From: a virus
Lineage: Duplodnaviria; Heunggongvirae; Uroviricota; Caudoviricetes
DNA: 48,906 bases
Virus record (IMG/VR): IMGVR_UViG_3300036399_001023
Reading direction: 5' to 3' (one strand)
Shown: one piece after another, positions 2,730 through 48,774 of the stretch
Layout: every line of letters starts with the position of its first letter
Position numbering within the stretch: position 1 is the first letter of the stretch
Program-made: the position numbers and the translations under genes
The notes under the pieces: generated by a model
Database searches by the model: none
What the model was told of the DNA's origin: nothing
What the model saw: the letters and a program-made list of their open reading frames with translations, nothing else

Positions 2730-3710
2730 TCACATCAGTTTGTCCCTACCCATTGACATTTTGTAAGGTTTGCTGCCATGCCTTGTATCTCCCCCCTCTA
2801 AGCGTATACTATTTCCGGACCGTGTCGCCGACCAATGGGTGCCACTTTCGTCCTCAAATTTGAACCTTTCCCCCTCCTTTAACTTTCCAAGGGCAATTTG
2901 GTGCTCGGGGTGTAGAACAGCCTTGAACTCAGACCCCCTACTGACCACTATCCTGTCACCCTGCTTTCTTACGGAAGTATCCGGACCTTTGGCTGCGATT
3001 CTCTTGAGGGTGGCTTTGGCTGCCGTGTCTCTCTCTGCCCTAGTTCGCCTGGTCGGAGAAGTCGCCTGTTCCGGTTTGGCGCGTTGCTCTTTCTTTTCCT
3101 CCCGCTCATCACGAATAAACTTGTTAAGTAGCGTGCTGTTTAGCGCACCACCCTTACCTAGAGCCTCGGCAAGATCGTTCCTAAACCATTTCGTGTTATG
3201 GCCACTGCCTTTGTGCTTTTCCTTCACTTTCTCAACAATGCTCTTATGCAGGGTCACTGCGTCTTTAAGATCTTTGCCCCTCAGTCCGCCCATTCTCGAT
3301 AAGGCTTTTAACTCGTCGGGCGCACGGCGCACAATCTCTTCTACCAGCTTATCTTTTCTAGCGGATGATCTCGTTGTACCAAGCTCCCTCTTAAGGTCAT
3401 CCGTAGACATGGCCTCCTCAGTACCTTTCTTACACTTTCCTCTGGTACCATAGGCCGAGCCGTCGGCTCGGACGCATCGAGTGAATTCGTACGAATCAAG
3501 TAAAGTGTTTACAGCTTCTTCAATGAATGGGTATTTACTCCCGTAGTCCTCAGAGAAGGAGAAACCTTCGGATGCTAACGCATCCGCTTCATTGCGGAGT
3601 TCTAAAGCTTCACCTAAGTTACCTTTCAGTGCTTCAGAAAGGGCTTCGAGGTAACAGTGGTCGAGTTTGTTCATGATTGACACTGAGAAAATTTCAGGGA
3701 GTGTTTTCAC
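2730..3710 (-). CDS. Hypothetical basic protein with CVRADGSAYGTRGKCKKG motif
   Basis: 326-aa ORF preceded by the GGGTAAAA motif. Confidence 0.6.
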   Translation of the reverse strand: MKTLPEIFSVSIMNKLDHCYLEALSEALKGNLGEALELRNEADALASEGFSFSEDYGSKYPFIEEAVNTLLDSYEFTRCVRADGSAYGTRGKCKKGTEEAMSTDDLKRELGTTRSSARKDKLVEEIVRRAPDELKALSRMGGLRGKDLKDAVTLHKSIVEKVKEKHKGSGHNTKWFRNDLAEALGKGGALNSTLLNKFIRDEREEKKEQRAKPEQATSPTRRTRAERDTAAKATLKRIAAKGPDTSVRKQGDRIVVSRGSEFKAVLHPEHQIALGKLKEGERFKFEDESGTHWSATRSGNSIRLEGGDTRHGSKPYKMSMGRDKLM

Positions 3711-3752
3711 CCCATCTTTTTATTTTACCCTTTGCGGACCAGGTTTAGGTAG

Positions 3753-36630: not shown

Positions 36631-36920
36631 GGGCGAAGTTTCTGCTTACTGAGGTGAGTGTGCCCCACTGCAAGAACCCTCTGTGCTACCTCTCGTGTAA
36701 CATTGTACTTGCATCCACTAGGGGATCTGTCAACAAGGTACTGTTTTTTCTGCTCCAGCGACAAAAGGTCAAACAATTTGTCTTCGTCTACCCACATACC
36801 ATAGTTGTAGTTTCTATCGAGAAAGACACGAACTCGGTTTCGGTAAAATCGTGCGGGATCAATACTTTTGTTCTCCGTTACAAGTAGCTCAATCATGCTT
36901 TCTTCCTCTTTTAAGGTCAT
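36621..36920 (-). CDS. Hypothetical protein
   Basis: 99 aa. Confidence 0.55.
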   Translation of the reverse strand: MTLKEEESMIELLVTENKSIDPARFYRNRVRVFLDRNYNYGMWVDEDKLFDLLSLEQKKQYLVDRSPSGCKYNVTREVAQRVLAVGHTHLSKQKLRPCL

Positions 36921-37155
36921 TGTCGTAGTTTAGTTGAAGGGTGAGCCAAAACTTTTCAGTTGGTTGTCCGAACACGTACTCAAGGCGCTCCGCTAGATGA
37001 GGGTCGATGCGAAGGTTCCCTTCCTCAAGTTCAAGAACTTCGGGTACGGTTAACCCTGTTTCTCCCGCAAAGTCGTGAAGAGAAATTCTACGCTCCAGAC
37101 GTAACTCCCTTACGATAGACCCTGGAGGTGAAGCCCAGTCTGGGTTGAATGACAT
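36889..37155 (-). CDS. HigA/VapI-family XRE HTH protein (orphan)
   Basis: PDWASPPGSIV..ISLHDFAGETG..LAERLEYVFG..FWLTLQLNYD; start moved to ATG 37155. Confidence 0.75.
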   Translation of the reverse strand: MSFNPDWASPPGSIVRELRLERRISLHDFAGETGLTVPEVLELEEGNLRIDPHLAERLEYVFGQPTEKFWLTLQLNYDNDLKRGRKHD

Positions 37156-37179
37156 TGGTTCTTCGAAGGTCACGTAAAT

Positions 37180-37207
37180 ACTATAGCGTTTTCCTTCTGG
37201 AAAACAA
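37180..37207 (-). promoter_or_regulatory. Sigma70-like early promoter TTGTTT-16-TATAGT
   Basis: Consensus-like hexamers upstream of the HigA-like gene. Confidence 0.55.
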
Positions 37208-37466
37208 ACGGGGAAACCGCCCAAGGCAAGGGGGCTAACCGCTCACCGCCCAACGGGGGTCAAGGTCAATCGTCAATTGAGACACCTTCAACAAGCCTGG
37301 AAAGGCGTTGAAACCGAGAAGAAGTGAGGGGCACAAGGCCTCCTTCGCACGACACGGACTCCAGTAGAAGACGGTCCAGGAAGTTTAACAGAGTCTCGCT
37401 GTCGTTGAAGGGGGTAGGTATCTGAGTCCGGGTTGTATGACATTGGTTTTCAGGATTTATGAGCGT

Positions 37467-37495
37467 ATTATAGCTGTTTTGCCCCAGCAAAGCAA
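37467..37495 (-). promoter_or_regulatory. Sigma70-like early promoter TTGCTT-17-TATAAT
   Basis: Near-consensus hexamers with 17-nt spacer. Confidence 0.7.
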
Positions 37496-37522
37496 GCCGG
37501 GGAACCACCCTAAGGCAACACT

Positions 37523-37708
37523 TTACCTTGTTGCAGTTGAAAGAAAGGGGTGCCCTTCATCAAGCGGTGTGTCATCCAAACAGGTGGACACTCCAAAGTG
37601 CGACACTCCAAAAAATTCCCCGTCTACCTCCACAGTAGCGTCCTTGTCCAGGTCATCGTTAGAAAAAGTCTGCAAACTTTCTAAAAGTTCTCGGAAAGTT
37701 AGTGTCAC
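37523..37708 (-). CDS. Small hypothetical phage protein
   Basis: 61 aa, coupled to the AAA gene. Confidence 0.6.
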   Translation of the reverse strand: MTLTFRELLESLQTFSNDDLDKDATVEVDGEFFGVSHFGVSTCLDDTPLDEGHPFLSTATR

Positions 37709-38274
37709 AGCGAGGGAGCCTCCTTAAAATGTAGCTCACCAAGATAGCTCAAAATCTCTGTGTCCCTGCGTTCGTCCGGTCCAGATATTGAGATTGGACG
37801 GAACCCACTGTACTTGCACAGATAGTCGTAGACAAACTCGTCAACTCTTTTGGCTTGGTCTTCGGTTTCGTAACGTCCGCGAGGGTCGAAGGGCTTGATG
37901 CGATTTAGGAAGAAATTCTTGTACGTTACACCCCTTTCCTCTGCGTGAGCCATGAAGGATTGAGCGGCGGAACTTACGTACGTGTCTTTGCCTTGAGACC
38001 GGTAGTCTTGGTAGATTCCTGCCAGAAGTATAGGGCTGTCGGTAACAATGTAGTCAACTTTGCCGTACAGCATGCTCTCATACGCGCTTTGCTTACCAAG
38101 GAGGTAAAGCTGGTCCCACTCGCGCACCTTGCGGTCGTTCCACGCCCAGTACTTCACATACTCTCTTACAAGTTCAACGTGAATGCCGGCCAGCTTCATT
38201 CTGGCGAAGAGGAGCGCAGCTGTGGTTGATTTTCCGCAACCGGACCCGCCGAAGAGGTTAATTACTGTTGTCAT
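37705..38274 (-). CDS. P-loop ATPase/kinase (NadR/Ttd14-like AAA)
   Basis: VINLFGGSGCGKSTT Walker A; ELVREYVK; VTDSPILL. Confidence 0.8.
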   Translation of the reverse strand: MTTVINLFGGSGCGKSTTAALLFARMKLAGIHVELVREYVKYWAWNDRKVREWDQLYLLGKQSAYESMLYGKVDYIVTDSPILLAGIYQDYRSQGKDTYVSSAAQSFMAHAEERGVTYKNFFLNRIKPFDPRGRYETEDQAKRVDEFVYDYLCKYSGFRPISISGPDERRDTEILSYLGELHFKEAPSL

Positions 38275-38401
38275 TTTGCTTTAATGGTGGTTTTGATTTA
38301 AGGCTCATAGGGATAAAGAAAGGGGGCCACAAACTTAGTATAGCGGTGTAGCTTCCTTGTAATTGACCTTCGTACGACGTTCCCTATGAGTGGAGGCTTG
38401 A

Positions 38402-39037
38402 TTAAACGTCCATATCGAGGAAGGATAGCTCATCAAGACCAATAAATTCCACACCTTTGTACACCGTATGGTGATTTAGATGCCAGTGGCCATGAATCCA
38501 AAGGTCCGGTTTATGAATCTCGAGCATGTTGTCGAAACACCTTCGTGTTACCGAAGGGATGTCAAATTTGTGCTTTCCTATTTTGTGACACACTAACGAA
38601 ATTACAGAGTCAGGACACTCATGCGTGACGACAACCTTCGGCTTCACAAGCTCGTACACGTCCATAATATTGCAGAGTTCACCGTAAGCCAGTTCTTCGT
38701 CGGGCCACCAGTCGTAGCGCTCGGTACGTCGGTCCCTATCGATGGAGTAAGCTCCACCCACACAAAAAATGTCGTCGCGACCGAACACCGATCCCCCGTC
38801 TTTCACCCAGTAGGGGTGTCTTTTGCAGGCACCGGGACTGTCGTGGTTTCCCCGTACGAAAAAGTGCTCACCTTTTGACATCGCGTCGTAGGGTGGGCTG
38901 CTGTATGGCTTCTCGGTCTTCGGGTCGATGAAACCCACACCGAAGTCCCCGACTTGAAGAGAGCGGTCGCAGCCTTTGATTAGCTTCTCATACTTCGACC
39001 ATTTGCCATGTACATCACCAATAAATCTGATTTTCAC
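38402..39037 (-). CDS. Calcineurin-like metallophosphoesterase
   Basis: IGDVHG, QVGDFG, RGNHD, THECP, HGHWH motifs. Confidence 0.88.
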   Translation of the reverse strand: MKIRFIGDVHGKWSKYEKLIKGCDRSLQVGDFGVGFIDPKTEKPYSSPPYDAMSKGEHFFVRGNHDSPGACKRHPYWVKDGGSVFGRDDIFCVGGAYSIDRDRRTERYDWWPDEELAYGELCNIMDVYELVKPKVVVTHECPDSVISLVCHKIGKHKFDIPSVTRRCFDNMLEIHKPDLWIHGHWHLNHHTVYKGVEFIGLDELSFLDMDV

Positions 39038-39267
39038 AGTGTTTCCCTAAACAAGTCAATCACTCTCTGTATCGCCTCAGATATTTCACCGGAGTCGTTA
39101 TCAATAACTCTCTGGTCAATCATCCAAGAAATGATATTGAAGATGTCTTTTTCAGTCGGTCCCTTCACCTGCGACTCTTTCAACGCTGCAAGTGCGAGGC
39201 ACGTTGTGGGGGACTCGTAGGGTATCTCGTCGAGTAGGGCAGCGCAAATGGCGCGGAAGTTTTCCAT
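39034..39267 (-). CDS. Small hypothetical protein
   Basis: 77 aa, directly after a promoter. Confidence 0.55.
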   Translation of the reverse strand: MENFRAICAALLDEIPYESPTTCLALAALKESQVKGPTEKDIFNIISWMIDQRVIDNDSGEISEAIQRVIDLFRETL

Positions 39268-39273
39268 ACATTT

Positions 39274-39302
39274 ACTATAGCGTTTTTGTCGCTATAAGGC
39301 AA
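39274..39302 (-). promoter_or_regulatory. Sigma70-like early promoter TTGCCT-17-TATAGT
   Basis: Hexamers seen; ATG of the next gene begins 7 nt after the -10 box. Confidence 0.7.
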
Positions 39303-39572
39303 GGGCCTAAACCGCCCCGCTCAGGGCGGTTATCCGCTTTTTCTAGCTGTAGGCCTGCCGCTACCATTCGCAGTGAGTGCTCGGCGTCAGCTACGGCTTG
39401 TTCATCAGGCGACGGCAGCTTTCGTTCCAGCAACTCGTCACCCCACTGCCATTTGGCCGCTTGTTCTGGGGGGGGGCGGTTTCTCTTTGGTTAGTCATTC
39501 TAACATGTGAACAATAAGGGTTGTTAAGTGACCAAGGAAGTGCCTGTACGACACTTCTTTTGCACTTTATTT

Positions 39573-40679
39573 CTATAGAACGTTTAGGTCAGGATACAGG
39601 CTCAAAAGTTCATCCTTTGACAGAACATCAAACTCGTCTTCGGGCTGCCAAATAACTTCCAGTGCCACCAGATCCTCGGGAGAGACAGATCCAAGTTTCA
39701 CAAGATTGGCGTTCAAGCTCTCATGCGAGTCAGACAGTTTGAGATCCAGCTTTTGGTCCGACGCCACAAGAACGCTCACAAGGATATACTCGTTCTCCCT
39801 TACGCCCCTTTGGGGTTTGACCTTACGCTCTGAGATGCTCCCGCCCACATTCGTGAGAACTTCCTCTGATGCCTTAGAGCGTTCTTCCATGGAAAGTTGG
39901 TCGAATCGGCTTTCTGCGTCGTCAGACGCCACCTGCTCAGTACTACTCCACGCGTAAACAACTTTGTCTGGGTGGCGAAGAAGGGCGAGGGAAGTTTCTT
40001 GCAGGATCTTCGAGAGACCCTCAGCACTGTCCGTGTCCCCTCGCCGAGCGAGTCGTATTAGGTCTGTTTGTAGGTCCTTTGCAGAGGCGAGCAAGGCCAC
40101 TCGCTGCCTCACCACGGTCGTCTTTCTAAGCTTGTCCCGCTGAGTACTCACCCATGGGCTCACAAAGTCGTCCCAACCCCCCGCCAGCAGAAAGATGGCC
40201 AAGCCTACTACGCCTAACACGGCAAGGATCCCAAAAAAGAATGCGGGACTTACAGGTATTTGAGGCACTGGTGCCACTTGCGACGAATAAAGTGGAGGAG
40301 CAACCGGATAGACGTTCGGTGTCATGTCCGGCATCACAATGATGTTCGTTCTGTTGCTCCTAGGGTTGCTGTAGGGTAGTGTTGTCCGGTACGGTATCGA
40401 AGGGCTACCACCGTAGTAGCTTGGACTTCTACTCAGCCCCGGTGCAGGGGTGCTTCTTAGCACCGGTGAGGGAGATGTCCTATAGCTTGGAGAGCTGGAG
40501 CGACTACTCCCGAAACTTGGGGACCGAGATGGTCGGCTATAGCTAGACGAACTGCGAAAGCTCCGTCCGCTTATTCGTCCGGCTGACGCTGCGAGTGCTG
40601 GTGTTGCCGAGAGCAGGGTTGCTAAGGCGAAAGTCAAAGCCAAGACAGTTGCTGCGGTTGCTGCGGTTTTTGTTTTCAT
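39573..40679 (-). CDS. DUF1517-family membrane protein (FLAP1/FlpA-like)
   Basis: Signal peptide, AASAGRISGRSF Ser/Gly-rich region, TM helix, ETSLALLRHP, EYILVSVLVA, LEVIWQP..ELLSLYPDL C-terminus. Confidence 0.85.
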   Translation of the reverse strand: MKTKTAATAATVLALTFALATLLSATPALAASAGRISGRSFRSSSSYSRPSRSPSFGSSRSSSPSYRTSPSPVLRSTPAPGLSRSPSYYGGSPSIPYRTTLPYSNPRSNRTNIIVMPDMTPNVYPVAPPLYSSQVAPVPQIPVSPAFFFGILAVLGVVGLAIFLLAGGWDDFVSPWVSTQRDKLRKTTVVRQRVALLASAKDLQTDLIRLARRGDTDSAEGLSKILQETSLALLRHPDKVVYAWSSTEQVASDDAESRFDQLSMEERSKASEEVLTNVGGSISERKVKPQRGVRENEYILVSVLVASDQKLDLKLSDSHESLNANLVKLGSVSPEDLVALEVIWQPEDEFDVLSKDELLSLYPDLNVL

Positions 40680-40756
40680 TGTGTTGAAGTAGTGTTACCT
40701 AGAAAATGCTAGGCGAAATGTTATGGGACAATCTTCCTTAATACCTGGGGGATCGC

Positions 40757-41533
40757 TCATACAGCCTCCCACTCGTTCGCCTTGAATTTCGGTCGCCACC
40801 AGTTTCGAACTTTACCGGCTTTGTCGATAGACAAGATAATGTAGTCGCCGAACCCCGCGCCACCTTTGCACAAATACTCGTCAGGAACGTAATCCCCACG
40901 GTACTTAAATAAGCGGTGCTCCGAGTCTCTGAGCCAGTACTCACCTTGGTCGCACACTTTGTAGTAAATTTCGGCGGTGACTCCGTAGGGCCACTCCATC
41001 ACCTGACCGTCTTTCAGGCGAATTGTTGGAGTCCAACATTTACCGGTCCTTAAGGGGATGAGTGTCCCCTCTTTATCAATCGTCTCATTGACTGTCGCGT
41101 CTTCCCAGTACCGCACTTCTGCGGATAGCTCAAGATACTCTAGTTTTGGAGTATTAGTGCCGGAGAGGCTAACCGTGCTCTTAGAACTCGACATGTCCGG
41201 GAACCAAGTGTCTTTTCGGCTAGAGTATACGGCGGTGTCGTCTTCGGTGAAAGACCTCTTTCGGCCAAACTTGTAGACCTCCACTTGGTCCTTCGTAAAG
41301 ACATAGCAAAAGTCGGTAGATGCGCTGGTTTTCCATTTCCAGGGCCAACCCTCTTCAGGAGAGTGAAAGTCTTCCCGTTTGGCTATGCGCCTGATTTTGG
41401 ACCGGAACTCGTGCGCGGAGGTGACGAACGTGATTTCCGGACAAATAGTTTCAAGAACACCACCGTCGGAGGAAATAGACCCGAGCCACTCAATGGACTT
41501 CGAAAGTCGAACGTAAAAGTCTGCCGGTTGCAT
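40757..41533 (-). CDS. Hypothetical protein, apparently two domains
   Basis: 258 aa downstream of a promoter. Confidence 0.6.
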   Translation of the reverse strand: MQPADFYVRLSKSIEWLGSISSDGGVLETICPEITFVTSAHEFRSKIRRIAKREDFHSPEEGWPWKWKTSASTDFCYVFTKDQVEVYKFGRKRSFTEDDTAVYSSRKDTWFPDMSSSKSTVSLSGTNTPKLEYLELSAEVRYWEDATVNETIDKEGTLIPLRTGKCWTPTIRLKDGQVMEWPYGVTAEIYYKVCDQGEYWLRDSEHRLFKYRGDYVPDEYLCKGGAGFGDYIILSIDKAGKVRNWWRPKFKANEWEAV

Positions 41534-41569
41534 GTTAAAAGTTGAGTCTGCACGAGTACGTATAAGGTA

Positions 41570-41598
41570 ACTATACCGCTTTCCTCTCGGAAAGGCAA
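41570..41598 (-). promoter_or_regulatory. Sigma70-like early promoter TTGCCT-17-TATAGT
   Basis: Same hexamers and spacing as the 39.3-kb promoter. Confidence 0.72.
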
Positions 41599-41626
41599 GG
41601 CGGGGAAACCGCCCCAGAGCAGCCGG

Positions 41627-41860
41627 TTAACCGTACCCCTCCAACTCAGTAGCAATCGCGTACAACTTCTCTTGGTAGTGCCCGTGTGCGCCAAGCGGTG
41701 TAAGTCCTAGTTCACCTCTAAATTCAATCTGCGTTATCAGTTCTCGAAGGAACGCAGCCAGTGCTTCACCGGTGTCTTCAAAAACTCCGATGCGGTCTGC
41801 AACGTCGCAGTAGGCGTTCCATGCGGCTTCGGCTTCAGGGCTGAGTTTGTGCTTAGTCAT
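41627..41860 (-). CDS. Small hypothetical protein (LSPEAEA..IATELEG family)
   Basis: 77 aa; resembles 42917..43159. Confidence 0.6.
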   Translation of the reverse strand: MTKHKLSPEAEAAWNAYCDVADRIGVFEDTGEALAAFLRELITQIEFRGELGLTPLGAHGHYQEKLYAIATELEGYG

Positions 41861-41937
41861 TTATCCCTAAAAGGTTAATAATTAGTATGGACAGCAAGAA
41901 ACAACTGGCAATCGTGCCCAGGGTTGAGTACAAAATT

Positions 41938-42297
41938 TCAAACATTGTTGCCTGGCAGTTGTTTCATGGCCCTCTCAGTAGAAAAATTGTGTAAAGCCAG
42001 TGACACCTCGTCTCCAATGGCGTCCTCTATGTCATTGAAGCAGGAACCAGCGTAGGTTCGCCACGACTGAGTCTCTTCGTCAAAGTCTTCCAACCGGGTC
42101 TCCACGATTGTTCGGTACGGTTCGTAAATCTCGAGGATCGTGTCAAATTGCGCCTGGGACAAGCTCACCCTATATGTGTTTATCCCGAGTGCTTCAGCAA
42201 TCTGAAGAGACGCGTTTGCATTGGGGTACCCAATAACGACAAGGTTATGGTTCCACATTACGTAGGACTCAAGGGTGAGACCAGGGATGCTACTCAT
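41938..42297 (-). CDS. Hypothetical protein
   Basis: 119 aa. Confidence 0.55.
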   Translation of the reverse strand: MSSIPGLTLESYVMWNHNLVVIGYPNANASLQIAEALGINTYRVSLSQAQFDTILEIYEPYRTIVETRLEDFDEETQSWRTYAGSCFNDIEDAIGDEVSLALHNFSTERAMKQLPGNNV

Positions 42298-42302
42298 TTA
42301 CT

Positions 42303-42533
42303 TCACCATTCATCAACAGGAATGTCATCGACGGGTAGTATGCGTAAGTGACGCACGGTGGGGTACTTCTCGGGAAGCCCCCTAGTTGCTCCGCAGGTTG
42401 AGCACCTGTGCGGGTATTGTAGGGGTTCAGTTAGCCAGGCAACGGTGCCGTAAGGCTGCATTGTTCCACTTTCACACTCGTCGCATTCATACTCAACCCC
42501 AACTACTTGTAGCGGAAAAGTTTTCTCAGCCAT
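42303..42533 (-). CDS. Small zinc-ribbon protein
   Basis: CDEC and CSTC pairs. Confidence 0.6.
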   Translation of the reverse strand: MAEKTFPLQVVGVEYECDECESGTMQPYGTVAWLTEPLQYPHRCSTCGATRGLPEKYPTVRHLRILPVDDIPVDEW

Positions 42534-42650
42534 TGTGCCCCCGAATGCTAGCTTTCTTTTGTGCTGCTGCGTAAACTTCCGCGGTTACCATTATCTTATG
42601 TTAGTGTGTTTGAGTCATAGGAGGAGTCTGTGTCAGCGGAATTGCTGGAC

Positions 42651-42673
42651 AAAAAAGCCCCCGTTAAGGGGTT
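42651..42673 (-). terminator. Possible weak intrinsic terminator
   Basis: CCCC/GGGG stem followed by U6 on the - strand. Confidence 0.4.
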
Positions 42674-42684
42674 AGTGTTTTAGC

Positions 42685-42924
42685 TCATTCAGCTGAACTA
42701 AATGAATTAAGGTAGTCAATCACTTTGTTGGTGACGATTACCCGAGCAAGCTCGTCGCTTGCCGTGGTGTCGGCATCACTTTCGTGGTACCGTTGTAACT
42801 CTTCGACCGTAGTCAAAAATAAAGACTGTAAAGTCTCTTCTAGTTCGTTAAGCCAGACCTCAGGTACTCCTGTTTGTTCAGTTTCTTGAACCAGTGAAAA
42901 CCTAGAGATTTGAGTTTTAATCAT
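42685..42924 (-). CDS. Hypothetical protein (MIKTQ...)
   Basis: ATG 42924 overlaps the upstream stop. Confidence 0.55.
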   Translation of the reverse strand: MIKTQISRFSLVQETEQTGVPEVWLNELEETLQSLFLTTVEELQRYHESDADTTASDELARVIVTNKVIDYLNSFSSAE

Positions 42925-43159
42925 TGTTTGAAGGTGTAATGAGAGACGTTGACCCCTCAAGTTCGATGGCAAGAGATCTTAGTTTCCCCTGGCGAATTGT
43001 CTTTAACCCGAACACAAGGTCGGGCTCGCACAGCTCAGCAATTGCGCGGAGTACGGCGGCAATCTTTACACGACGATTCACCAGCTCATGGTACCCGTTA
43101 AAAGCATCGTCTATTGACTGTGCATCAGGACTTAGGCTCTCAGATGACTCAGTAGGCAT
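42917..43159 (-). CDS. Small hypothetical protein (LSPDAQ..LAIELEG family)
   Basis: 80 aa; resembles 41627..41860. Confidence 0.6.
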   Translation of the reverse strand: MPTESSESLSPDAQSIDDAFNGYHELVNRRVKIAAVLRAIAELCEPDLVFGLKTIRQGKLRSLAIELEGSTSLITPSNND

Positions 43160-43436
43160 TCTCGTCTCCGATTAGATTTACAAGTTCCTGAATAGTCATT
43201 TTGCGAAGGTCTTCGATCATGATCATGGCTTCTGTTGCCATCTTCAGTCCAAAGGAGTAACCTTGCTCATAACCTTCTCTTCCTGCTTCGTTATACGCCC
43301 CGTGCCACTCTAAGTTTTTTTGTCTTAAGTGTCTGTGACTCTCAATTAGAGATGCAACAGTAAGTGGTTCCAGGGGTGTATATTCTCCGTGAATTTCGGA
43401 GTCGTAGTCAGCAAGGAGCTTGTCGTCGTCAGTCAT
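43149..43436 (-). CDS. Hypothetical protein
   Basis: ATG 43436 overlaps the upstream stop. Confidence 0.55.
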   Translation of the reverse strand: MTDDDKLLADYDSEIHGEYTPLEPLTVASLIESHRHLRQKNLEWHGAYNEAGREGYEQGYSFGLKMATEAMIMIEDLRKMTIQELVNLIGDENAY

Positions 43437-43629
43437 TTTGTTCGTGCCTATAAGAGTCATCTTGGTCCAGCCTCGCCTCTAGCTTAGCGATCTTTTCGTA
43501 AAGGTCTACAATGGTGTCAATTAGGTCTTCGTAACACAGAGTCGGAGACTCTCTGTCTTCTGAATGCTTGGTGTAACACGTTTGCCACTCTTCGGGCTTT
43601 GTGTAATAGCTGTAAGGGTGTAGTGTCAT
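43429..43629 (-). CDS. Small hypothetical protein
   Basis: 66 aa. Confidence 0.55.
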   Translation of the reverse strand: MTLHPYSYYTKPEEWQTCYTKHSEDRESPTLCYEDLIDTIVDLYEKIAKLEARLDQDDSYRHEQND

Positions 43630-43651
43630 TAAGCTTCCATTTGGTTTTAAA

Positions 43652-43945
43652 CTAGTCTAGGGTCGTTAAAAGATCCAGTGAGGATAAAACAACTTCTAAG
43701 GCTCTTTTGTCGCCAATACAGTTCTCAATTAAATTAGCCAGTTGGTCACGAGTTAAGCCAGGTGGGGATTCCCTTATCATTAGAACCGCAAGGGCTAATC
43801 CCTCGTCCAAAGCTGCTAAGGTTTCCTGTTTCAGGATGGCCCTTAAAAAGCTCTCTTGCTCAAGGGTGAATTCCTGAACCAACCTAAGATCAACCTTCTC
43901 CCCAATCTCTTTAATACACTGAAGGGTCTTTTCATCGTAAGTCAT
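43652..43945 (-). CDS. Hypothetical protein
   Basis: 97 aa, ATGA overlap. Confidence 0.55.
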   Translation of the reverse strand: MTYDEKTLQCIKEIGEKVDLRLVQEFTLEQESFLRAILKQETLAALDEGLALAVLMIRESPPGLTRDQLANLIENCIGDKRALEVVLSSLDLLTTLD

Positions 43946-44457
43946 TGGTTTCGGTTTGTAAGTGATTTGAGTGGTCTTAAGGCAAGCCCAAAAATGTTCT
44001 TAAGGCGCCCAGCAAGTTTTGAGAGGGGTGATACTTCTGTAGTAGGGTAGGGAATGAAAGAACCTGTGTCCAGCCACCTTTGCAAAACAGTAACCAGGGA
44101 CTGAACCTGTTCTTCCCCAAGGTGCATTCTATCTTCCCCTTGGCCCAACCAAACCGCAGACGTCCCTGGCTCCCAATAAACGGCAAGGGAGCTTTGTTGC
44201 AGGCTGCACTCCTTGTTGTATAGATCTTGAAAGTCAATGACCTCAAATCCCCTCTCGGTGCGGGTCACCAACCCAAGTTCCCCGGTGAGTTCGAGATCTT
44301 CCATTGCTTCCTCAAAGGAATATGTTTTTTCTTCTCCGGACTCAACACGCTTTGCTATGGCAATGGCATCGAGAACGTCCTCGTCACTCCAATTCGTGTC
44401 CTGGAACCAGTTCTGGTAGTAGCTCTGGATTCTCGCTATCAAAGTTCGGTTAATCAT
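43942..44457 (-). CDS. Two-part protein: RelB/StbD-like antitoxin motif plus conserved phage domain
   Basis: EDVLDAIAIAKRVESGEEKTYSFEEAMEDLEL, then RTERGF..CSLQQSSLA..VWLG..RMHL. Confidence 0.5.
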   Translation of the reverse strand: MINRTLIARIQSYYQNWFQDTNWSDEDVLDAIAIAKRVESGEEKTYSFEEAMEDLELTGELGLVTRTERGFEVIDFQDLYNKECSLQQSSLAVYWEPGTSAVWLGQGEDRMHLGEEQVQSLVTVLQRWLDTGSFIPYPTTEVSPLSKLAGRLKNIFGLALRPLKSLTNRNQ

Positions 44458-44677
44458 TCTCGTTGATTTCGCTCAGTGTTTGTTTTTTCGAGGTGCTCCG
44501 GTCGTATCGCTTACCAACCCAGTGTGGGCAGCTGTGACCCCAGTCGGGCTTTGTGCGTGTGTCGAGAAACTCACACAGTCCTGAGGCTAATTCACCTCCT
44601 TTACCGCCGTTTTCTGCCACAAGGGGATCTTTTTTCCACTTGGTGTAGCAGGCACAGGATCCACAGCTTTTGCTCAT
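44450..44677 (-). CDS. Small Cys-rich protein
   Basis: CGSC..LC..C motif; ATG 44677. Confidence 0.55.
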   Translation of the reverse strand: MSKSCGSCACYTKWKKDPLVAENGGKGGELASGLCEFLDTRTKPDWGHSCPHWVGKRYDRSTSKKQTLSEINEND

Positions 44678-44714
44678 TGCTTCGCCCCCCAACGTGTTAG
44701 GCCATCTTTCACTA

Positions 44715-44743
44715 AGTATGCCGGTTTTCACCAGGGAAGTAAA
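44715..44743 (-). promoter_or_regulatory. Sigma70-like early promoter TTTACT-17-CATACT
   Basis: Spacing and upstream GGCGG-GAAA-CCGTC hairpin match the other early promoters. Confidence 0.55.
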
Positions 44744-44803
44744 GGCGGGAAACCGTCTCGAAGCAAACGGTCAACCGTACTTTACACAGGGAAGGACACA
44801 GAA

Positions 44804-45187
44804 CTATTCCAGTGGCGCAAAGTTTCGAGGTAGGACTGAATTGGGGGACGACAGCAAAAGACGGTACATTTCTTCTTCGAGCCCCCTTGTGATATCCTTA
44901 GCGATCGACTCGGCAAGCTTTGCAATAGCCTCTGCGCTCTTCTCACACCGTCCATTTTTGTACTCCGATAAAATGGTTGAGAAAGTTGTAGATCGTGTGA
45001 ATTTCTTTCCATTTAGGGTCCACCCTGCTTCTAGGGTGGTTTCCCTGGAAAGAGGATCTAAGTACCCCTCAACTCCAACACTCAGTGAGTTTTCGGGGGC
45101 AGCGACACCTTTCGTGTGCAAGGTTCGAAAGTGGTCAGAAAGCTCTTGCCATTCTTGGAGTTGCTGTAGAGGTGTTTTTTCGTTCAT
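44804..45187 (-). CDS. Hypothetical protein
   Basis: 127 aa. Confidence 0.55.
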   Translation of the reverse strand: MNEKTPLQQLQEWQELSDHFRTLHTKGVAAPENSLSVGVEGYLDPLSRETTLEAGWTLNGKKFTRSTTFSTILSEYKNGRCEKSAEAIAKLAESIAKDITRGLEEEMYRLLLSSPNSVLPRNFAPLE

Positions 45188-45230
45188 CTTATATGGTGTA
45201 AATTTAGGGGGATCGAAGCCTATCCACGTA

Positions 45231-45410
45231 TCAACGACGTGGCCCCCTTAGAAGCTTTGCGGTTAAGGGGTAGGGCCAGAGTAAAACATGGCCGCAAACG
45301 TCCAAAATTCTAACCCTGTGCCCGATAACAGGTAGATCGTAGTCTGGGAGTGCGGAAAGGAGCCTTGCAAAGCCTACAAGCAGGTAAGTTACGGCAAGTA
45401 GGGCGAGCAT
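45231..45410 (-). CDS. Small predicted membrane protein (59 aa, MLALLAVTYLLVGFARLL...), not in ORF track
   Basis: ATG 45410 to TGA 45231; hydrophobic N-terminus; fills an intergenic gap. Confidence 0.5.
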   Translation of the reverse strand: MLALLAVTYLLVGFARLLSALPDYDLPVIGHRVRILDVCGHVLLWPYPLTAKLLRGPRR

Positions 45411-45479
45411 GGGGAGGTCTACGGTTAACTATGCCGGTAGTATAGCTTGGGATTTTTCTGGTAAAGTTTGTCGCCTTTT

Positions 45480-45680
45480 TCATATGCGGTCTCTGGATCG
45501 CCACTGGTAGCACCAATCTTTGTCGGCATTGATTTCCTTCGGTGGACCTTGTATGTGGCACTTTGTGGAAATTCGTTCCGCTACCAGGCCGTGTGTGTTA
45601 GGAATCGAGGCTAGTACAGGGTTTATAACTAGGGTAGAAACCGAGTAGTCACAAGTTGAGCATTGTCTCTTATTGTCCAT
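45480..45680 (-). CDS. Small Cys-containing protein
   Basis: QCSTC..C..PP..WCYQW. Confidence 0.55.
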   Translation of the reverse strand: MDNKRQCSTCDYSVSTLVINPVLASIPNTHGLVAERISTKCHIQGPPKEINADKDWCYQWRSRDRI

Positions 45681-45689
45681 GTTCTTTCA

Positions 45690-46031
45690 CTAAGACGCAC
45701 TGGGGTTTACAATTGCCCACCAAGGTAACCAGTGAGTGTAGTTGTAACCGCTCCCTGAGAGGTTATATTTTCTAACTGGCCAGTCAAATTGTAACATTTC
45801 CCACGTACCCTCAACTGCTGATCCGTCTGCGTCGGTTCTCCACCACCAACATAGTTCTTCGACGTCAGAATCGGAGAGCGTAGGTAGACGGTCAGAAACA
45901 CTTACAGGGTCAAAGGTTTCACCGGGAGCAGCTCTGTAGAGCTTACTCTCGGCTTCTCTTTCTCTCACCAAGCCGTACTCAATTTCAGCAGAAATCTGCA
46001 AGGCTTTCTCTCGTGCGTCGCGCAAGTTCAT
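45690..46031 (-). CDS. Hypothetical protein with DUF551-like (PVS..RLP/THWLP) domain
   Basis: PVSVSDRLP..CWWW..YTHWLP. Confidence 0.55.
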   Translation of the reverse strand: MNLRDAREKALQISAEIEYGLVREREAESKLYRAAPGETFDPVSVSDRLPTLSDSDVEELCWWWRTDADGSAVEGTWEMLQFDWPVRKYNLSGSGYNYTHWLPWWAIVNPSAS

Positions 46032-46032
46032 C

Positions 46033-46242
46033 TTAAACAGGGCAGGGTATTGAGTTGTATGGCAACCAATGAGTGAGACCGTATTCTTCCTGAGACTCTA
46101 AGTTCTGGCTGTCGTACCTCATAAGTTCCCAACAGTCGCCACAACCGATTCCTGGGCAAAACACCCAAAACTCTGCGTTGGTACTACAGTCTTCCGGTCC
46201 AGGGTACCGCTCGGTAAAGGGTACGGGTACTTGCGTCGTCAT
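46033..46242 (-). CDS. Small DUF551-like protein
   Basis: PVPFTERYP..W..W..LTHWLP. Confidence 0.55.
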   Translation of the reverse strand: MTTQVPVPFTERYPGPEDCSTNAEFWVFCPGIGCGDCWELMRYDSQNLESQEEYGLTHWLPYNSIPCPV

Positions 46243-46475
46243 GCTGGAGAAAGGTCAGTGTGTGTAATGCTAGGTAAGGTGTAGCGGCTTCCCAATTGCC
46301 CTGCTTCGTTGCTTCCGCTGCAGTTGAACGAGTGGTGAGTTCCTTTTGGACACCTTTTGTTGCCGCAAGTTGGACAAACGGCCATAGGATGAACCAAAGG
46401 TTGCGCTGTGGCGTTTGCCCTTTCCTTGACACAATAAAAGCACGGGCACCCCTGTTTGTACAATGTATCAGCCAT
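46239..46475 (-). CDS. Small Cys/His-rich (zinc-binding) protein
   Basis: CPCFYC..CPTCGNKRCPKGTHH..C. Confidence 0.6.
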   Translation of the reverse strand: MADTLYKQGCPCFYCVKERANATAQPLVHPMAVCPTCGNKRCPKGTHHSFNCSGSNEAGQLGSRYTLPSITHTDLSPA

Positions 46476-46851
46476 TGAGCTCTTTTAGAGCCTCCCCTCC
46501 TTCAACCAAAGCTCTTACAATAGTGCTTGTAATCTCAGGTAGGTACCGTCCGTCTTTCTCGATGGTCCCCATGAATTGCAGGGCGATTTCATTAAGTGTA
46601 GGGGCTTTCGGCCTACGGGCCTCACGAAGTTCAACTGCGAGTGAGTCCCAAAGTTCCTTGTCAGATTCGTCGGCGTTTTCTCTCAACCAGTCGCAGCAAG
46701 CATCAAGCTCCTGGTCGGCGCCCCATTGTGCGACCTTGTTGGCGAAGTTGCGCGTAGGCTGGAGGGCATTGGTGGGGGGCATCACCTGGTCAATGGGCCA
46801 CCAGCTCTCTATAAGTTCGTCGGAAACTTCAATCGAATTGTGCTGAGTCAT
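46468..46851 (-). CDS. Hypothetical phage protein (WGADQELDACC motif)
   Basis: 127 aa. Confidence 0.6.
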   Translation of the reverse strand: MTQHNSIEVSDELIESWWPIDQVMPPTNALQPTRNFANKVAQWGADQELDACCDWLRENADESDKELWDSLAVELREARRPKAPTLNEIALQFMGTIEKDGRYLPEITSTIVRALVEGGEALKELNG

Positions 46852-46931
46852 TGCGTCGGAATTTTGTTCAATTGGATTAGATACATTCGGGCCAGAAGGG
46901 GAAGAACCATCTTTAGTAAAATCCCACTCTT

Positions 46932-47189
46932 TTAGGGACTCTCGAAACGCTGTGAGCAGTCCTTCGTCAACTTGCTCAAGGGTTTGTGGTTGTGGTGACC
47001 AGCTTTCCTGGGGACTTTCTGGTTTGTTACGTAGCGCCTTCTCAAGGTAGTGTAAACACCCGCACTAGTACGCCACCGGGCAACCACCCTTGGAATCTCT
47101 TCAGTCCGGCCCACCCACCATGGGCCTTCCTGATGAATCACTGCTGTAACGGTTGTTTGGAGTTTAATTCTTTCTTCTCGGTTTGTCAT
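46932..47189 (-). CDS. HicB-family antitoxin-like N-terminal domain (orphan)
   Basis: TAVIHQEGPWWVGRTEEIPRV..RT matches the HicB TAVIxQDGxWWIGWxEEIPGV pattern. Confidence 0.65.
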   Translation of the reverse strand: MTNREERIKLQTTVTAVIHQEGPWWVGRTEEIPRVVARWRTSAGVYTTLRRRYVTNQKVPRKAGHHNHKPLSKLTKDCSQRFESP

Positions 47190-47377
47190 TCGTAAAACTT
47201 GTCAAGTTTGGAAAGAACCTCACGTCTCGTGGGTAAATTAAGTGCCATGCGCAACGTGTCGTTTTCGTGTATCAAAAGTATTACCATATCTGGCGTAGTA
47301 ACTTCGCATTCTGGGAATTGCGACCCGATAAGGGTTGAAATTCTCATATACTCCGTTTTGTAGTCAGTTTCTTCCAT
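47186..47377 (-). CDS. Small hypothetical protein
   Basis: 63 aa, ATGA overlap. Confidence 0.5.
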   Translation of the reverse strand: MEETDYKTEYMRISTLIGSQFPECEVTTPDMVILLIHENDTLRMALNLPTRREVLSKLDKFYE

Positions 47378-47407
47378 ACTAGAACCTTCGGTGTTGGCTT
47401 AAATGAG

Positions 47408-48001
47408 TTAAAAGTGTGGCATCAAGGTCGCACAGTTAGAACCGTCTTGCCGGAGTCGAAGGGCAATCCATAGTCTCTTGAGCAGCGGTTCTTTTCTGTA
47501 CCGTTCTAACCTCCCTTCAGTAACCTTAAGGGAGTTTACTAAGGCACGAGCATCATTCTGGGACTTCTCAAGGTTTCGCCCTAGCGTCCAAAGTTTCTGC
47601 CCTTGATCATACACTTTGTCCTCAAGCTTAACCACCTTATTACGGAGTTTGGAATTAATGTAGGTGGATAGTATCCTTTCGGTCTGAGGCTCAATCGCAA
47701 ATAAGTGAAGGTAGGAGGGGTCGTAGTTCCCAGACTTCCGGCCCCCGTCGTAACTCTCCAAGTATAAACGTTCAACCTCAGGAAGATCATGAAGAGGTAA
47801 ACTTGAGCAGAAACCAACCTCGTGTAGTGGGAGACTTTCTACGTGATTCTTCCTCGTGAGTGAAACCTTGTTATCCGGGTCACCTGTAGGTATGCGGAAT
47901 AGCTCGTCAGGGTCTAAGAGTGGAGCGTACCTGACGTATTTGTCATTGTCATAAACGGGTACGACCGTTTTAGTTAGAGTGTATATTGTGGCGTTTCTCA
48001 T
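47408..48001 (-). CDS. Hypothetical protein with C-terminal coiled coil
   Basis: 197 aa. Confidence 0.55.
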   Translation of the reverse strand: MRNATIYTLTKTVVPVYDNDKYVRYAPLLDPDELFRIPTGDPDNKVSLTRKNHVESLPLHEVGFCSSLPLHDLPEVERLYLESYDGGRKSGNYDPSYLHLFAIEPQTERILSTYINSKLRNKVVKLEDKVYDQGQKLWTLGRNLEKSQNDARALVNSLKVTEGRLERYRKEPLLKRLWIALRLRQDGSNCATLMPHF

Positions 48002-48074
48002 TTTTCAGTGGTCTAGGGGTGTGAATTAGTATGCTGGACCGGAGTCGAGGTAAAGGTTCCCTGGCGAGGTCCCC

Positions 48075-48344
48075 CTAGTCGGGCTCGTCCGCCGATAGGG
48101 TCCCGTCGAGGTTTACTTCGACACTCGCCACCAGCGACTGGAGTCGTTCGGCCCACTCCCCAAGACCCGTTGAGTCTGGAGGCGCAACGGGCCAGTGCTT
48201 AGCCTCGTATTCCTCTACCAAAATTATCAAGGTCTCTAACCGGTTGTACTCGGGGCTACCTTTCGAAGCGTCCCAGTAGCGGTCGATGTCCTTAAGGGCA
48301 AGGTCGTACTCGGTTTCGTTTGCGAGAGGTTTAACGGATTGCAT
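48075..48344 (-). CDS. HigA (YgjM-type) antitoxin N-terminal domain without HTH (orphan)
   Basis: KPLANETEYDLALKDIDRYWDASKGSPEYNRLETLIILVEEYEAKHWPVAPPD. Confidence 0.72.
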   Translation of the reverse strand: MQSVKPLANETEYDLALKDIDRYWDASKGSPEYNRLETLIILVEEYEAKHWPVAPPDSTGLGEWAERLQSLVASVEVNLDGTLSADEPD

Positions 48345-48369: not shown

Positions 48370-48774
48370 TTAAATTGTTGTGTCTCTAGTTAGGATCCCT
48401 AACTTATTCGGTAAGACGACAGGGGTTCCACCGCAAACTTTGCAGTAGTCCTCGGGTTCAGTTTCAAGGGTTAGAAGCCGATGTTTGTTATTGTACTGAA
48501 GTTCATCTAACCGCTCCCTCACCTTGATGAGTGACGCGAGTGGGAACAACCACCTCCCATCAGACTGAAAAGCACCGGGAAAGTACCCGCCTTCAAGCCA
48601 GTTACTGACACTTTCGTCGGAGTCAATCTCAAGGAAAGCTGTAGCTTGCTCAGAGTCGTATAGGTCTGCTTTTGACACGAGAAAGAAATTTTCAGCTATC
48701 GATTGCAGAACAGCATTGTTGTCTCGGATTCTTTCCGCAACAGTTATTGAATCGGAAGGTGCTGAGTAATCCAT
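48370..48774 (-). CDS. MerR/excisionase-like HTH DNA-binding protein
   Basis: YDSEQATAFLEI..SVSNWLEGGYFPGAFQSDGRWLFP. Confidence 0.55.
   Translation of the reverse strand: MDYSAPSDSITVAERIRDNNAVLQSIAENFFLVSKADLYDSEQATAFLEIDSDESVSNWLEGGYFPGAFQSDGRWLFPLASLIKVRERLDELQYNNKHRLLTLETEPEDYCKVCGGTPVVLPNKLGILTRDTTI

Follow-up and report, generated by a model that had tools for sequence, protein, structure and literature searches.

The window analysed here is the whole 48,906-nt stretch of IMG/VR record IMGVR_UViG_3300036399_001023, a virus of the Caudoviricetes, and all of its plausible genes lie on the minus strand. Its first 36 kb carry Mu-like head genes, a contractile tail, a family A polymerase of the Pol-gamma type and a topoisomerase IV/gyrase A-like gene. 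A megablast of the window against GenBank phages gave no match. Six contigs of IMG/VR are closely related to it (88-97% identity across 34.4-48.9 kb), the largest being 277,244 bp in length and rated 98% complete, and the window is therefore a fragment of an uncultured jumbo myovirus of about 277 kb, with freshwater picocyanobacteria (Cyanobium, Vulcanococcus, Synechococcus) as its likely hosts. Between 36.4 and 48.9 kb there are about 34 small, tightly packed open reading frames (ORFs), interspersed with repeated cassettes of a stem-loop and a sigma-70-like promoter, and the end of the window falls midway in this long run of small genes. Four of the ORFs resemble antitoxins from toxin-antitoxin (TA) systems of type II and are the subject of this report. 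A sequence-only reading had described them as HigA/VapI-like, RelB/StbD-like, HicB-like and HigA/YgjM-like respectively, and profile matches as well as matches to host homologues confirm these similarities. The genes and their parts are as follows.

36889-37155, minus strand: ORF1, a stand-alone HigA/VapI-type XRE helix-turn-helix (HTH) protein of 88 amino acids (aa) from the ATG at 37155 (TIGR02607, phrog_1381, PDB 4mcx)
43942-44457, minus strand: ORF2, 171 aa, with an N-terminal helical extension bearing a segment like the C-terminus of RelB/ribbon-helix-helix (RHH) antitoxins, then a phrog_3849 domain, then a tail (phrog, NCBIfam, model)
44287-44442, minus strand: ORF2 residues 6-57, like the toxin-binding C-terminal half of host RHH antitoxins (NF048017, L114:1423-1677)
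44053-44280, minus strand: ORF2 residues 60-135, a small domain of beta + helix type that is widespread (phrog_3849, E 1.4e-15; predicted local distance difference test (pLDDT) 86-89)
46932-47189, minus strand: ORF3, 85 aa, a split allele whose first 44 residues form a HicB-like head and whose other 41 are out of frame relative to a 239-aa gene of relatives (comparison with L001, L004)
47059-47061, minus-strand gene: homopolymer run, CCC on the plus strand in the window and CCCC in L001 and L004, which splits that gene (sequence alignment)
46468-46851, minus strand: 127-aa phrog_32006 domain gene with its own ATG (E 1e-13), corresponding to the C-terminal half of the 239-aa fusion L001:7258-7977
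48174-48344, minus strand: ORF4 residues 1-57, corresponding to the N-terminal domain in HigA of the E. coli K-12 (YgjM) type (profile, PDB and host-identity matches)
48075-48173, minus strand: ORF4 residues 58-89 and stop codon, an acidic tail in place of the HTH, like the PrlF C-terminus (PF15937, NF007429)

Judged by sequence, the four phage genes appear to be true homologues of host antitoxins, being captured pieces of four antitoxin families for which complete TA pairs are found in the probable host clade.

ORF4 (48075-48344) encodes 89 aa. A word-based homologue search with this protein returned nine close relatives only, two of them named HigA by JGI, while a search of 1.84 billion representatives with a profile of these nine yielded 1948 proteins at E <= 1e-3, each matched over residues 1-57. 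The narrow profile of the phage relatives had no match in PDB; only a wider one, built from 70 of the homologues (HTH_3 being present in 8 of the 70), reached it, matching the E. coli/Shigella HigA structures 5ifg_B and 5ycl_A at E 1e-5. The nearest cellular relatives are from freshwater picocyanobacteria (Prochlorococcaceae, Cyanobium, Vulcanococcus, Synechococcus sp. HJ21-Hayes), with 50-59% identity to their HigA over 57-71 aa, and the HigA/YgjM N-domain proposed for this ORF is thus borne out. Of 80 cellular loci, 74 have a homologue of a PF09907 HigB directly upstream of the host HigA, as in the pair of a 98-aa HigB (PF09907, 110 bits) and a 152-aa HigA with HTH_3 at L015. The likeness of ORF4 to host HigA extends as far as the 'PPD' that follows residue 55, beyond which ORF4 has a divergent acidic tail of 32 residues. 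No HTH was matched in it by Pfam scan, and the alignment parts after residue 57, where the host proteins run into HTH_3.

The tail as found in the window matches the last residues of PrlF weakly (PF15937, E 0.047; NF007429, E 0.013), and that of relative P0008, which is 20 aa longer, does so at E 8.1e-7 for NF007429 and E 2.2e-6 for PF15937. Only the last 35 or so model positions are covered; the AbrB/SpoVT N-terminal domain of the PrlF type has no counterpart and the HigA head stands in its place. On these two matches, with HigA over residues 1-57 and with the PrlF C-terminus beyond, ORF4 is a HigA head joined to a PrlF-like tail. PrlF matches in host genomes were set aside, as they concern AbrB-type N-termini and their tails are unlike that of ORF4. 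Nothing could be concluded from the YhaV and PrlF searches of five host genomes, since no signal was obtained with the E. coli control.

All six related contigs have an intact ORF4 head, at identities as low as 60% and with 41 invariant positions, and ORF4 is present as one copy in the 277-kb relative, in this same region. The ratio of nonsynonymous to synonymous substitution rates (dN/dS) is 0.41-0.66 against the more distant relatives and above 1, on few changes, against L001. Prediction of complexes with host toxins had been suggested by the sequence-only reading, and was run for ORF4 and a Synechococcus HigB. The predicted complex scored 0.57, the best control 0.01, with a contact agreement between runs of at least 68% and a partner pLDDT of at least 67. 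Of 80 solved complexes, 58 attained the mark used for this score, as did 2 of 110 mismatched pairs; only 7 of the 80 solved complexes, and both of the mismatched pairs that passed, lay at scores <=0.60. The prediction is classed by the tool as weak support for binding.

Two further observations concern HigA and HigB genes outside this phage. An unrelated viral contig (L103:2102-2839) also has an HTH-less HigA head, in this case of 116 aa and differing in its C-terminal part. A separate small HTH-like gene lies before it and a dUTPase-like gene after it, and among the ORFs listed around this match none is apparent that is HigB-like. The cyanobacterial higB genes L027:2205-2489 and L044:2205-2489, which lie beside HigA relatives, carry an in-frame stop, and some host copies of the toxin thus appear to be inactivated.

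ORF3 was not matched by any family model in hidden Markov model (HMM) scans, and features from the Atlas gave leads only, to DUF1902 and HicB clusters (0.86-0.89). The 277-kb relative gave no match to Pfam HicB_lk_antitox or DUF1902 at a threshold as loose as E <= 10. When taken in the frame of the relatives, residues 10-56 have counterparts in small open frames of picocyanobacterial genomes, the lowest per-genome E being 8e-8, and the head has 42% identity to a 70-aa host protein over the first 45 residues of the latter (pairwise E 9e-11). A PF07927 HicA gene lies immediately downstream of the host gene in each of the five genomes checked. This identity to a protein with a HicA neighbour argues that the ORF3 head is probably a relative of the short host HicB-type antitoxin, so that the HicB-like N-domain once proposed for the whole ORF would apply to its 44 in-frame residues, through the host match and not through any HMM, and in an allele that is frameshifted. 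In one picocyanobacterial genome (G108, contig C13, 14766-16133) about 1 kb separates an ORF4-like HigA from an ORF3-like HicB-type match, and a small TA island is suggested by this arrangement.

In L001-L005 one extra base (GGGG on the coding strand, GGG in the window) results in a single 239-aa ORF that reads through into the downstream gene, the head thereby being fused by a linker to the phrog_32006 domain. An assembly error was considered as the cause of the frameshift and excluded, an identical 85-aa product being present on at least 18 contigs from at least nine samples. ORF3 is a natural split allele produced by a 1-nt homopolymer change, and the HicB-like head may be inactive in the allele of the window. 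AlphaFold2 modelling of the 239-aa form without an alignment gave a mean pLDDT of 37. The Atlas had no usable match for this form, and the sole protein recovered by a word-based search with its first 111 aa was that of the window itself. In L006 (L006:7212-7964) the same phrog_32006 domain carries, joined in frame, a different 127-aa head without recognisable relatives, for which neither hosts nor PDB gave a credible match.

Such fusions allow for a use of the toxins beyond silencing, in which the heads would bring RNase toxins of the host to the phage domains that they are fused with, for redirection or use. Two of the heads are indeed fused with conserved phage domains and L006 places another head on one of them, but ORF1 and ORF4 have no such fused domain and the fused domains give no sign of activity, so that we regard this explanation as very improbable.

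In the case of ORF2, 25 detectable homologues have only residues ~60-135 in common, and the N-terminal extension is confined to close relatives. Within the extension, residues 26-57 match the RelB-like model NF048017 below threshold (E 5e-4 and 20 bits, where the cut-off is 50), and relative P0011 matches it at E 1e-3. Residues 6-57 align with a host RHH antitoxin of 84 aa (L114:1423-1677), in its C-terminal half, at 30% identity over 53 aa and a pairwise E of 3e-8, and in that one genome a PF05016 RelE/ParE gene (55 bits) follows directly after the antitoxin. Among 151 picocyanobacterial genomes, the three best matches of the extension all fall in the C-terminal half of one RHH antitoxin family, with weak genome-wide E-values of 0.008-0.04, and an Atlas structure lead for residues 6-57 points to Unstab_antitox (template modelling (TM) score 0.51). 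No RHH was matched in ORF2; the alignment begins at residue 27 of the host antitoxin, and the RHH strand and first helix are without counterpart. The separate lines are weak and near chance genome-wide yet agree with one another, and for this reason homology of the extension to the host RHH antitoxin is rated as reasonably probable, if well short of certain. The RelB/StbD-like motif proposed for the N-terminus is therefore retained, with matches that are weak throughout.

The model of ORF2 (pLDDT 70) had no convincing match in PDB, whether with Foldseek or with VIA-align (best Z 3.6), and in the AFDB clusters it found unnamed small proteins only. Its phrog_3849 domain is modelled with confidence and has no known fold match in PDB or AFDB. 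A faint HigB2 row for the model (E 0.5) was rejected as noise. ORF2 has a dN/dS of 0.20 against L004. The N-terminus of its relative P0011 has a 17-residue stretch (AEN..SKADLYDS..) in common with ORF5 (48370-48774), 13 of the 17 positions being shared, which suggests that the early genes shuffle modules at short shared motifs.

Frameshifts could also be signs of decay. On such an account the genes would be debris, fragments of host TA loci acquired by illegitimate recombination at the promoter-terminator cassettes and now eroding without function. ORF3 and a neighbouring 58-aa gene (37266-37443) are both frameshifted in the window, the region is highly plastic with relatives swapping heads, and the dN/dS of ORF4 against L001 points the same way. 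The conservation of the ORF4 head in six contigs and the low dN/dS of ORF2 are hard to reconcile with erosion, clean in-frame domain grafts are unlike random decay, and the toxin half is missing every time. We consider debris improbable.

ORF1 has a longer possible start, a TTG at 37224 that falls within the promoter cassette upstream; the protein that begins with the ATG (37155) fits the HigA model from model position 6. It matches TIGR02607 HigA (E 1.1e-7, 31.6 bits), phrog_1381 'plasmid antitoxin with HTH domain' (E 5e-7) and PDB HigA 4mcx (E 1.5e-4). Over its full length it is 40% identical (E 5e-16) to the N-terminal HTH of a 370-aa protein with HTH_3 and Peptidase_M78 domains in a Cyanobium metagenome-assembled genome (L096:670-1782). 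The HigA/VapI-like HTH suggested for this ORF is accordingly found, although under the cut-off of the family model (47.7), and ORF1 looks like a genuine HigA-type HTH by these matches. One copy is present in the 277-kb relative, again in this region. A 109-aa ORF upstream of the Cyanobium relative had been considered as a toxin on account of a HigB 'killer' motif seen by eye, and was rejected with E 1.8 to 4mct_B and no Pfam match. Lone HTH genes like ORF1 occur in Microcystis and Cylindrospermopsis phages, where they are annotated as XRE or Cro/C1.

Of the four, ORF1 is the one most readily taken for a plain regulator, and a wider form of this explanation has to be considered together with the gene just upstream of ORF4.

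48370-48774, minus strand: ORF5, an HTH_17 (excisionase/MerR-like) protein (PF12728, E 2.5e-3)

In relative P0003 the homologue of ORF5 is fused in frame with the homologue of ORF4, which has the PrlF-like tail. This fusion rebuilds a protein of HTH plus head, so that ORF4 and the HTH_17 protein might form a two-part regulator. ORF1 would then be an ordinary XRE phage transcription factor, in keeping with its full HTH and with the annotation of its phage relatives, and the other heads would be modules for phage-internal contacts, none of them acting on host toxins; phrog_3849 and phrog_32006 have no known link to toxins. This explanation leaves unaccounted for why each of the four genes matches an antitoxin family with toxin neighbours in hosts, and why the matched parts in ORF2 and ORF4 are the parts that do not bind DNA. 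It is the rival that we take most seriously, and is nonetheless unlikely.

With respect to toxins, the window was scanned with Pfam, PADLOC and NCBIfam over 43 + 49 ORFs (92), antisense ORFs included, without a match to any toxin family. At E <= 0.02 six NCBIfam families are matched by the region's 49 ORFs, three of the six being antitoxin families and none a toxin family. In the 98%-complete 277-kb relative, six-frame HMM searches gave no match to PF05015, PF05016, PF07927, PF05973, PF09907 or PF11663 (HigB-like, ParE/RelE, HicA, Gp49, HigB, YhaV). Hence, in the window and in this relative, there is no PF09907 HigB beside ORF4, no PF05015 or PF05973 beside ORF1, no PF07927 HicA beside ORF3 and no PF05016 beside ORF2. 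Both the absence of toxins next to these genes, as claimed from the sequence, and the absence of the six toxin families from the 277-kb relative are in agreement with orphan antitoxins.

Taken together, the four matches to host antitoxins, the lack of a DNA-binding part in three of them and the missing toxins make toxin-neutralising decoys the best explanation. The sequence-only reading had counted two genes that keep the toxin-binding part without the DNA-binding domain; the pattern holds and extends to three, namely ORF2, ORF3 and ORF4. ORF2 and ORF3 are not free antitoxins but heads on phage-specific domains. Its view of the proteins as antitoxin mimics fits in so far as decoys are concerned; they would be true homologues of host antitoxins, however, and not look-alikes in the sense of T4 Dmd.

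As to mechanism, the phage would have captured the toxin-contacting parts of four host type II antitoxins (a YgjM-type HigA, a VapI-type HigA, a short HicB and an RHH RelB-like protein), with the DNA-binding part dropped or never present in three and the heads grafted on a PrlF-like tail, phrog_3849 and phrog_32006. Transcription would probably proceed from host-type promoters in a plastic accessory region. When infection halts host gene expression, labile host antitoxins would decay and free mRNA-cutting toxins of the HigB, HicA and RelE/ParE classes, and the phage proteins would then bind the freed toxins and prevent abortive infection. Toxin binding, the timing of expression and the benefit to the phage are all inferred. 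Overall, we lean, if slightly, towards the phage proteins neutralising host toxins.

A number of points weigh against this conclusion. The RelB-like match of ORF2 is the weakest of the four, ORF1 stays below the cut-off of the HigA model, and with its full HTH ORF1 may be an ordinary transcription regulator. The frameshift allele that truncates the ORF3 head is common in nature, which argues that the head is dispensable in that lineage. The dN/dS of 0.41-0.66 for ORF4 is only moderately low. The score of the predicted ORF4-HigB complex may reflect likeness to, or memory of, HigBA complexes, since a similar complex has already been solved. In the searches for PF09907 and PF11663 none of the control genomes exceeded the cut-off, and the E. 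coli control was silent for PF11663 and PF15937 at E <= 0.01, so that the negative for PF09907 HigB in the 277-kb relative is of moderate strength. Lastly, the cognate TA pairs are sporadic in the sampled picocyanobacteria: of 151 genomes, 4 had the HigA type and 3 the RelB-like type, the latter at weak E-values.

This sporadic occurrence as accessory genes in the host family would also suit anti-addiction, an idea for orphan antitoxins that has been reviewed (PMC7354431), in which the heads neutralise the toxins of competing plasmids, prophages or co-infecting phages and not those of chromosomal host defences. The mechanism is the same as for neutralisation of host toxins and the source of the toxin alone differs; nothing in the data separates the two, and we consider a target confined to rival elements quite improbable.

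Neutralisation of host toxins can be taken a step further, to a lytic jumbo cyanophage with modular anti-toxin proteins, in which interchangeable host-derived heads (HigA, HicB, RelB, PrlF tail) without DNA binding are carried on a few carrier domains. ORF4 would combine two heads in 89 aa, and heads would be swapped or frameshifted off as the TA repertoires of hosts change, providing a multi-target counter-defence against RNase toxins. We offer this fuller version tentatively, as something that may well prove wrong in part.

The remainder of the region shows a number of further features, among them the promoter cassette upstream of ORF1.

37160-37260, minus strand: stem-loop and sigma-70-like promoter cassette (TTGCCT-N17-TATAGT), leader and start context (direct-repeat families D1, D2, D6, D8; promoter-like sites)

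Related copies of the cassette lie near 37425-37540, 39296-39336 and 41601-41642, the repeated stem-loop and TTGCCT-N17-TATAGT unit itself being located at 37209-37250, 39296-39336 and 41601-41642, and promoters of the form TTGCCT-N17-TATAGT/TATAAT are thus found at about 37.2, 37.5, 39.3 and 41.6 kb. The region had been called early, a timing suggested by promoter type alone. The 58-aa gene next to ORF1 is broken by a homopolymer near 37410 (C5 in the window, C4 in L001) and is intact as L001:17537-17713. It has its promoter, leader and first six codons (MS[F/Y]NPD) in common with ORF1 because the whole cassette has been duplicated. Another homopolymer difference, CCCC in the window and CCC in L004 and L006, occurs at 42953 within the 56-nt overlap of the ORFs 42685-42972 and 42917-43159, which may be one gene in relatives.

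In L001-L003 a segment of about 1 kb (L001:14884-15924) replaces 0.5 kb of the window (39054-39574). It includes 313 bp that are 85% identical to window positions 3418-3730, part of a distant gene having been duplicated. Beyond the end of the window, the run of small genes goes on in L001 (L001:1-5621) with APH-type kinase-like, nucleoside 2-deoxyribosyltransferase-like and HD_4 (RelA/SpoT-type hydrolase-like) genes.

Type II TA pairs are among the commonest suspected anti-phage systems, and the Dmd protein of phage T4 counters RnlA/LsoA. To our knowledge, few phage inhibitors of type II RNase toxins have been described. Each of the phage heads reported here can be paired with a named host toxin gene, among these HigB at L015:2196-2492 for ORF4, HicA at L110:1244-1429 for the ORF3 head and RelE/ParE at L114:1652-1918 for ORF2, and the proposal is therefore directly testable by co-expression. 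If it is true, phages would harvest host antitoxin heads as a panel, the TA systems of freshwater picocyanobacteria would be linked to phage defence, and a way to find such genes would be to compare phage ORFs with host antitoxins rather than with family models.

Of the known systems, E. coli K-12 HigB-HigA (YgjN-YgjM; PDB 5IFG, 5YCL) and its picocyanobacterial orthologues (L015:2196-2959) have the same N-terminal domain family as ORF4 residues 1-57. The HTH is C-terminal in HigA of the E. coli K-12 type (PMC7984235); ORF4, in contrast, lacks an HTH, a HigB and its own operon, with a PrlF-like acidic tail at the place of the HTH. ORF1 is a single XRE HTH of the HigA/VapI family (TIGR02607; Proteus vulgaris HigA 4MCX, Coxiella VapI 3TRB) and resembles toxin-less HigA-type genes of other large phages such as Microcystis phage MaMV-DC. 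It differs from the family in its sub-cut-off match and in having no PF05015/Gp49 toxin, and from its nearest host relative in the lack of a peptidase-M78 domain. The ORF3 head aligns to the first 45 residues of the HicB-like protein in picocyanobacterial short HicB-HicA pairs (70-aa HicB-like and 61-aa HicA, for example L110:1244-1638). Unlike these, it is not recognised by Pfam HicB models, is fused to a 127-aa phage domain in relatives, is frameshifted in the window and has no HicA.

Counter-defence by orphan antitoxins is already known, having been proven for the DarG-like NADAR enzymes of T4-like phages (PMC11825919) and the anti-DarT mimic of ICP1 (PMC11481870), while a role in anti-addiction has been put forward for orphan antitoxins of type II (PMC7354431) and those of the binding type are considered hard to spot (PMC11825919). 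The set described here is a modular one of HTH-less heads from several families. Like this set, the DarG-like enzymes, ICP1 anti-DarT and T4 Dmd are phage genes without a toxin partner, and the known ones neutralise a host TA toxin. They are, however, single genes, either enzymatic or unrelated in sequence to the antitoxin, whereas the jumbo phage described here has four putative heads of the binding type (type II), from different families and in one region.

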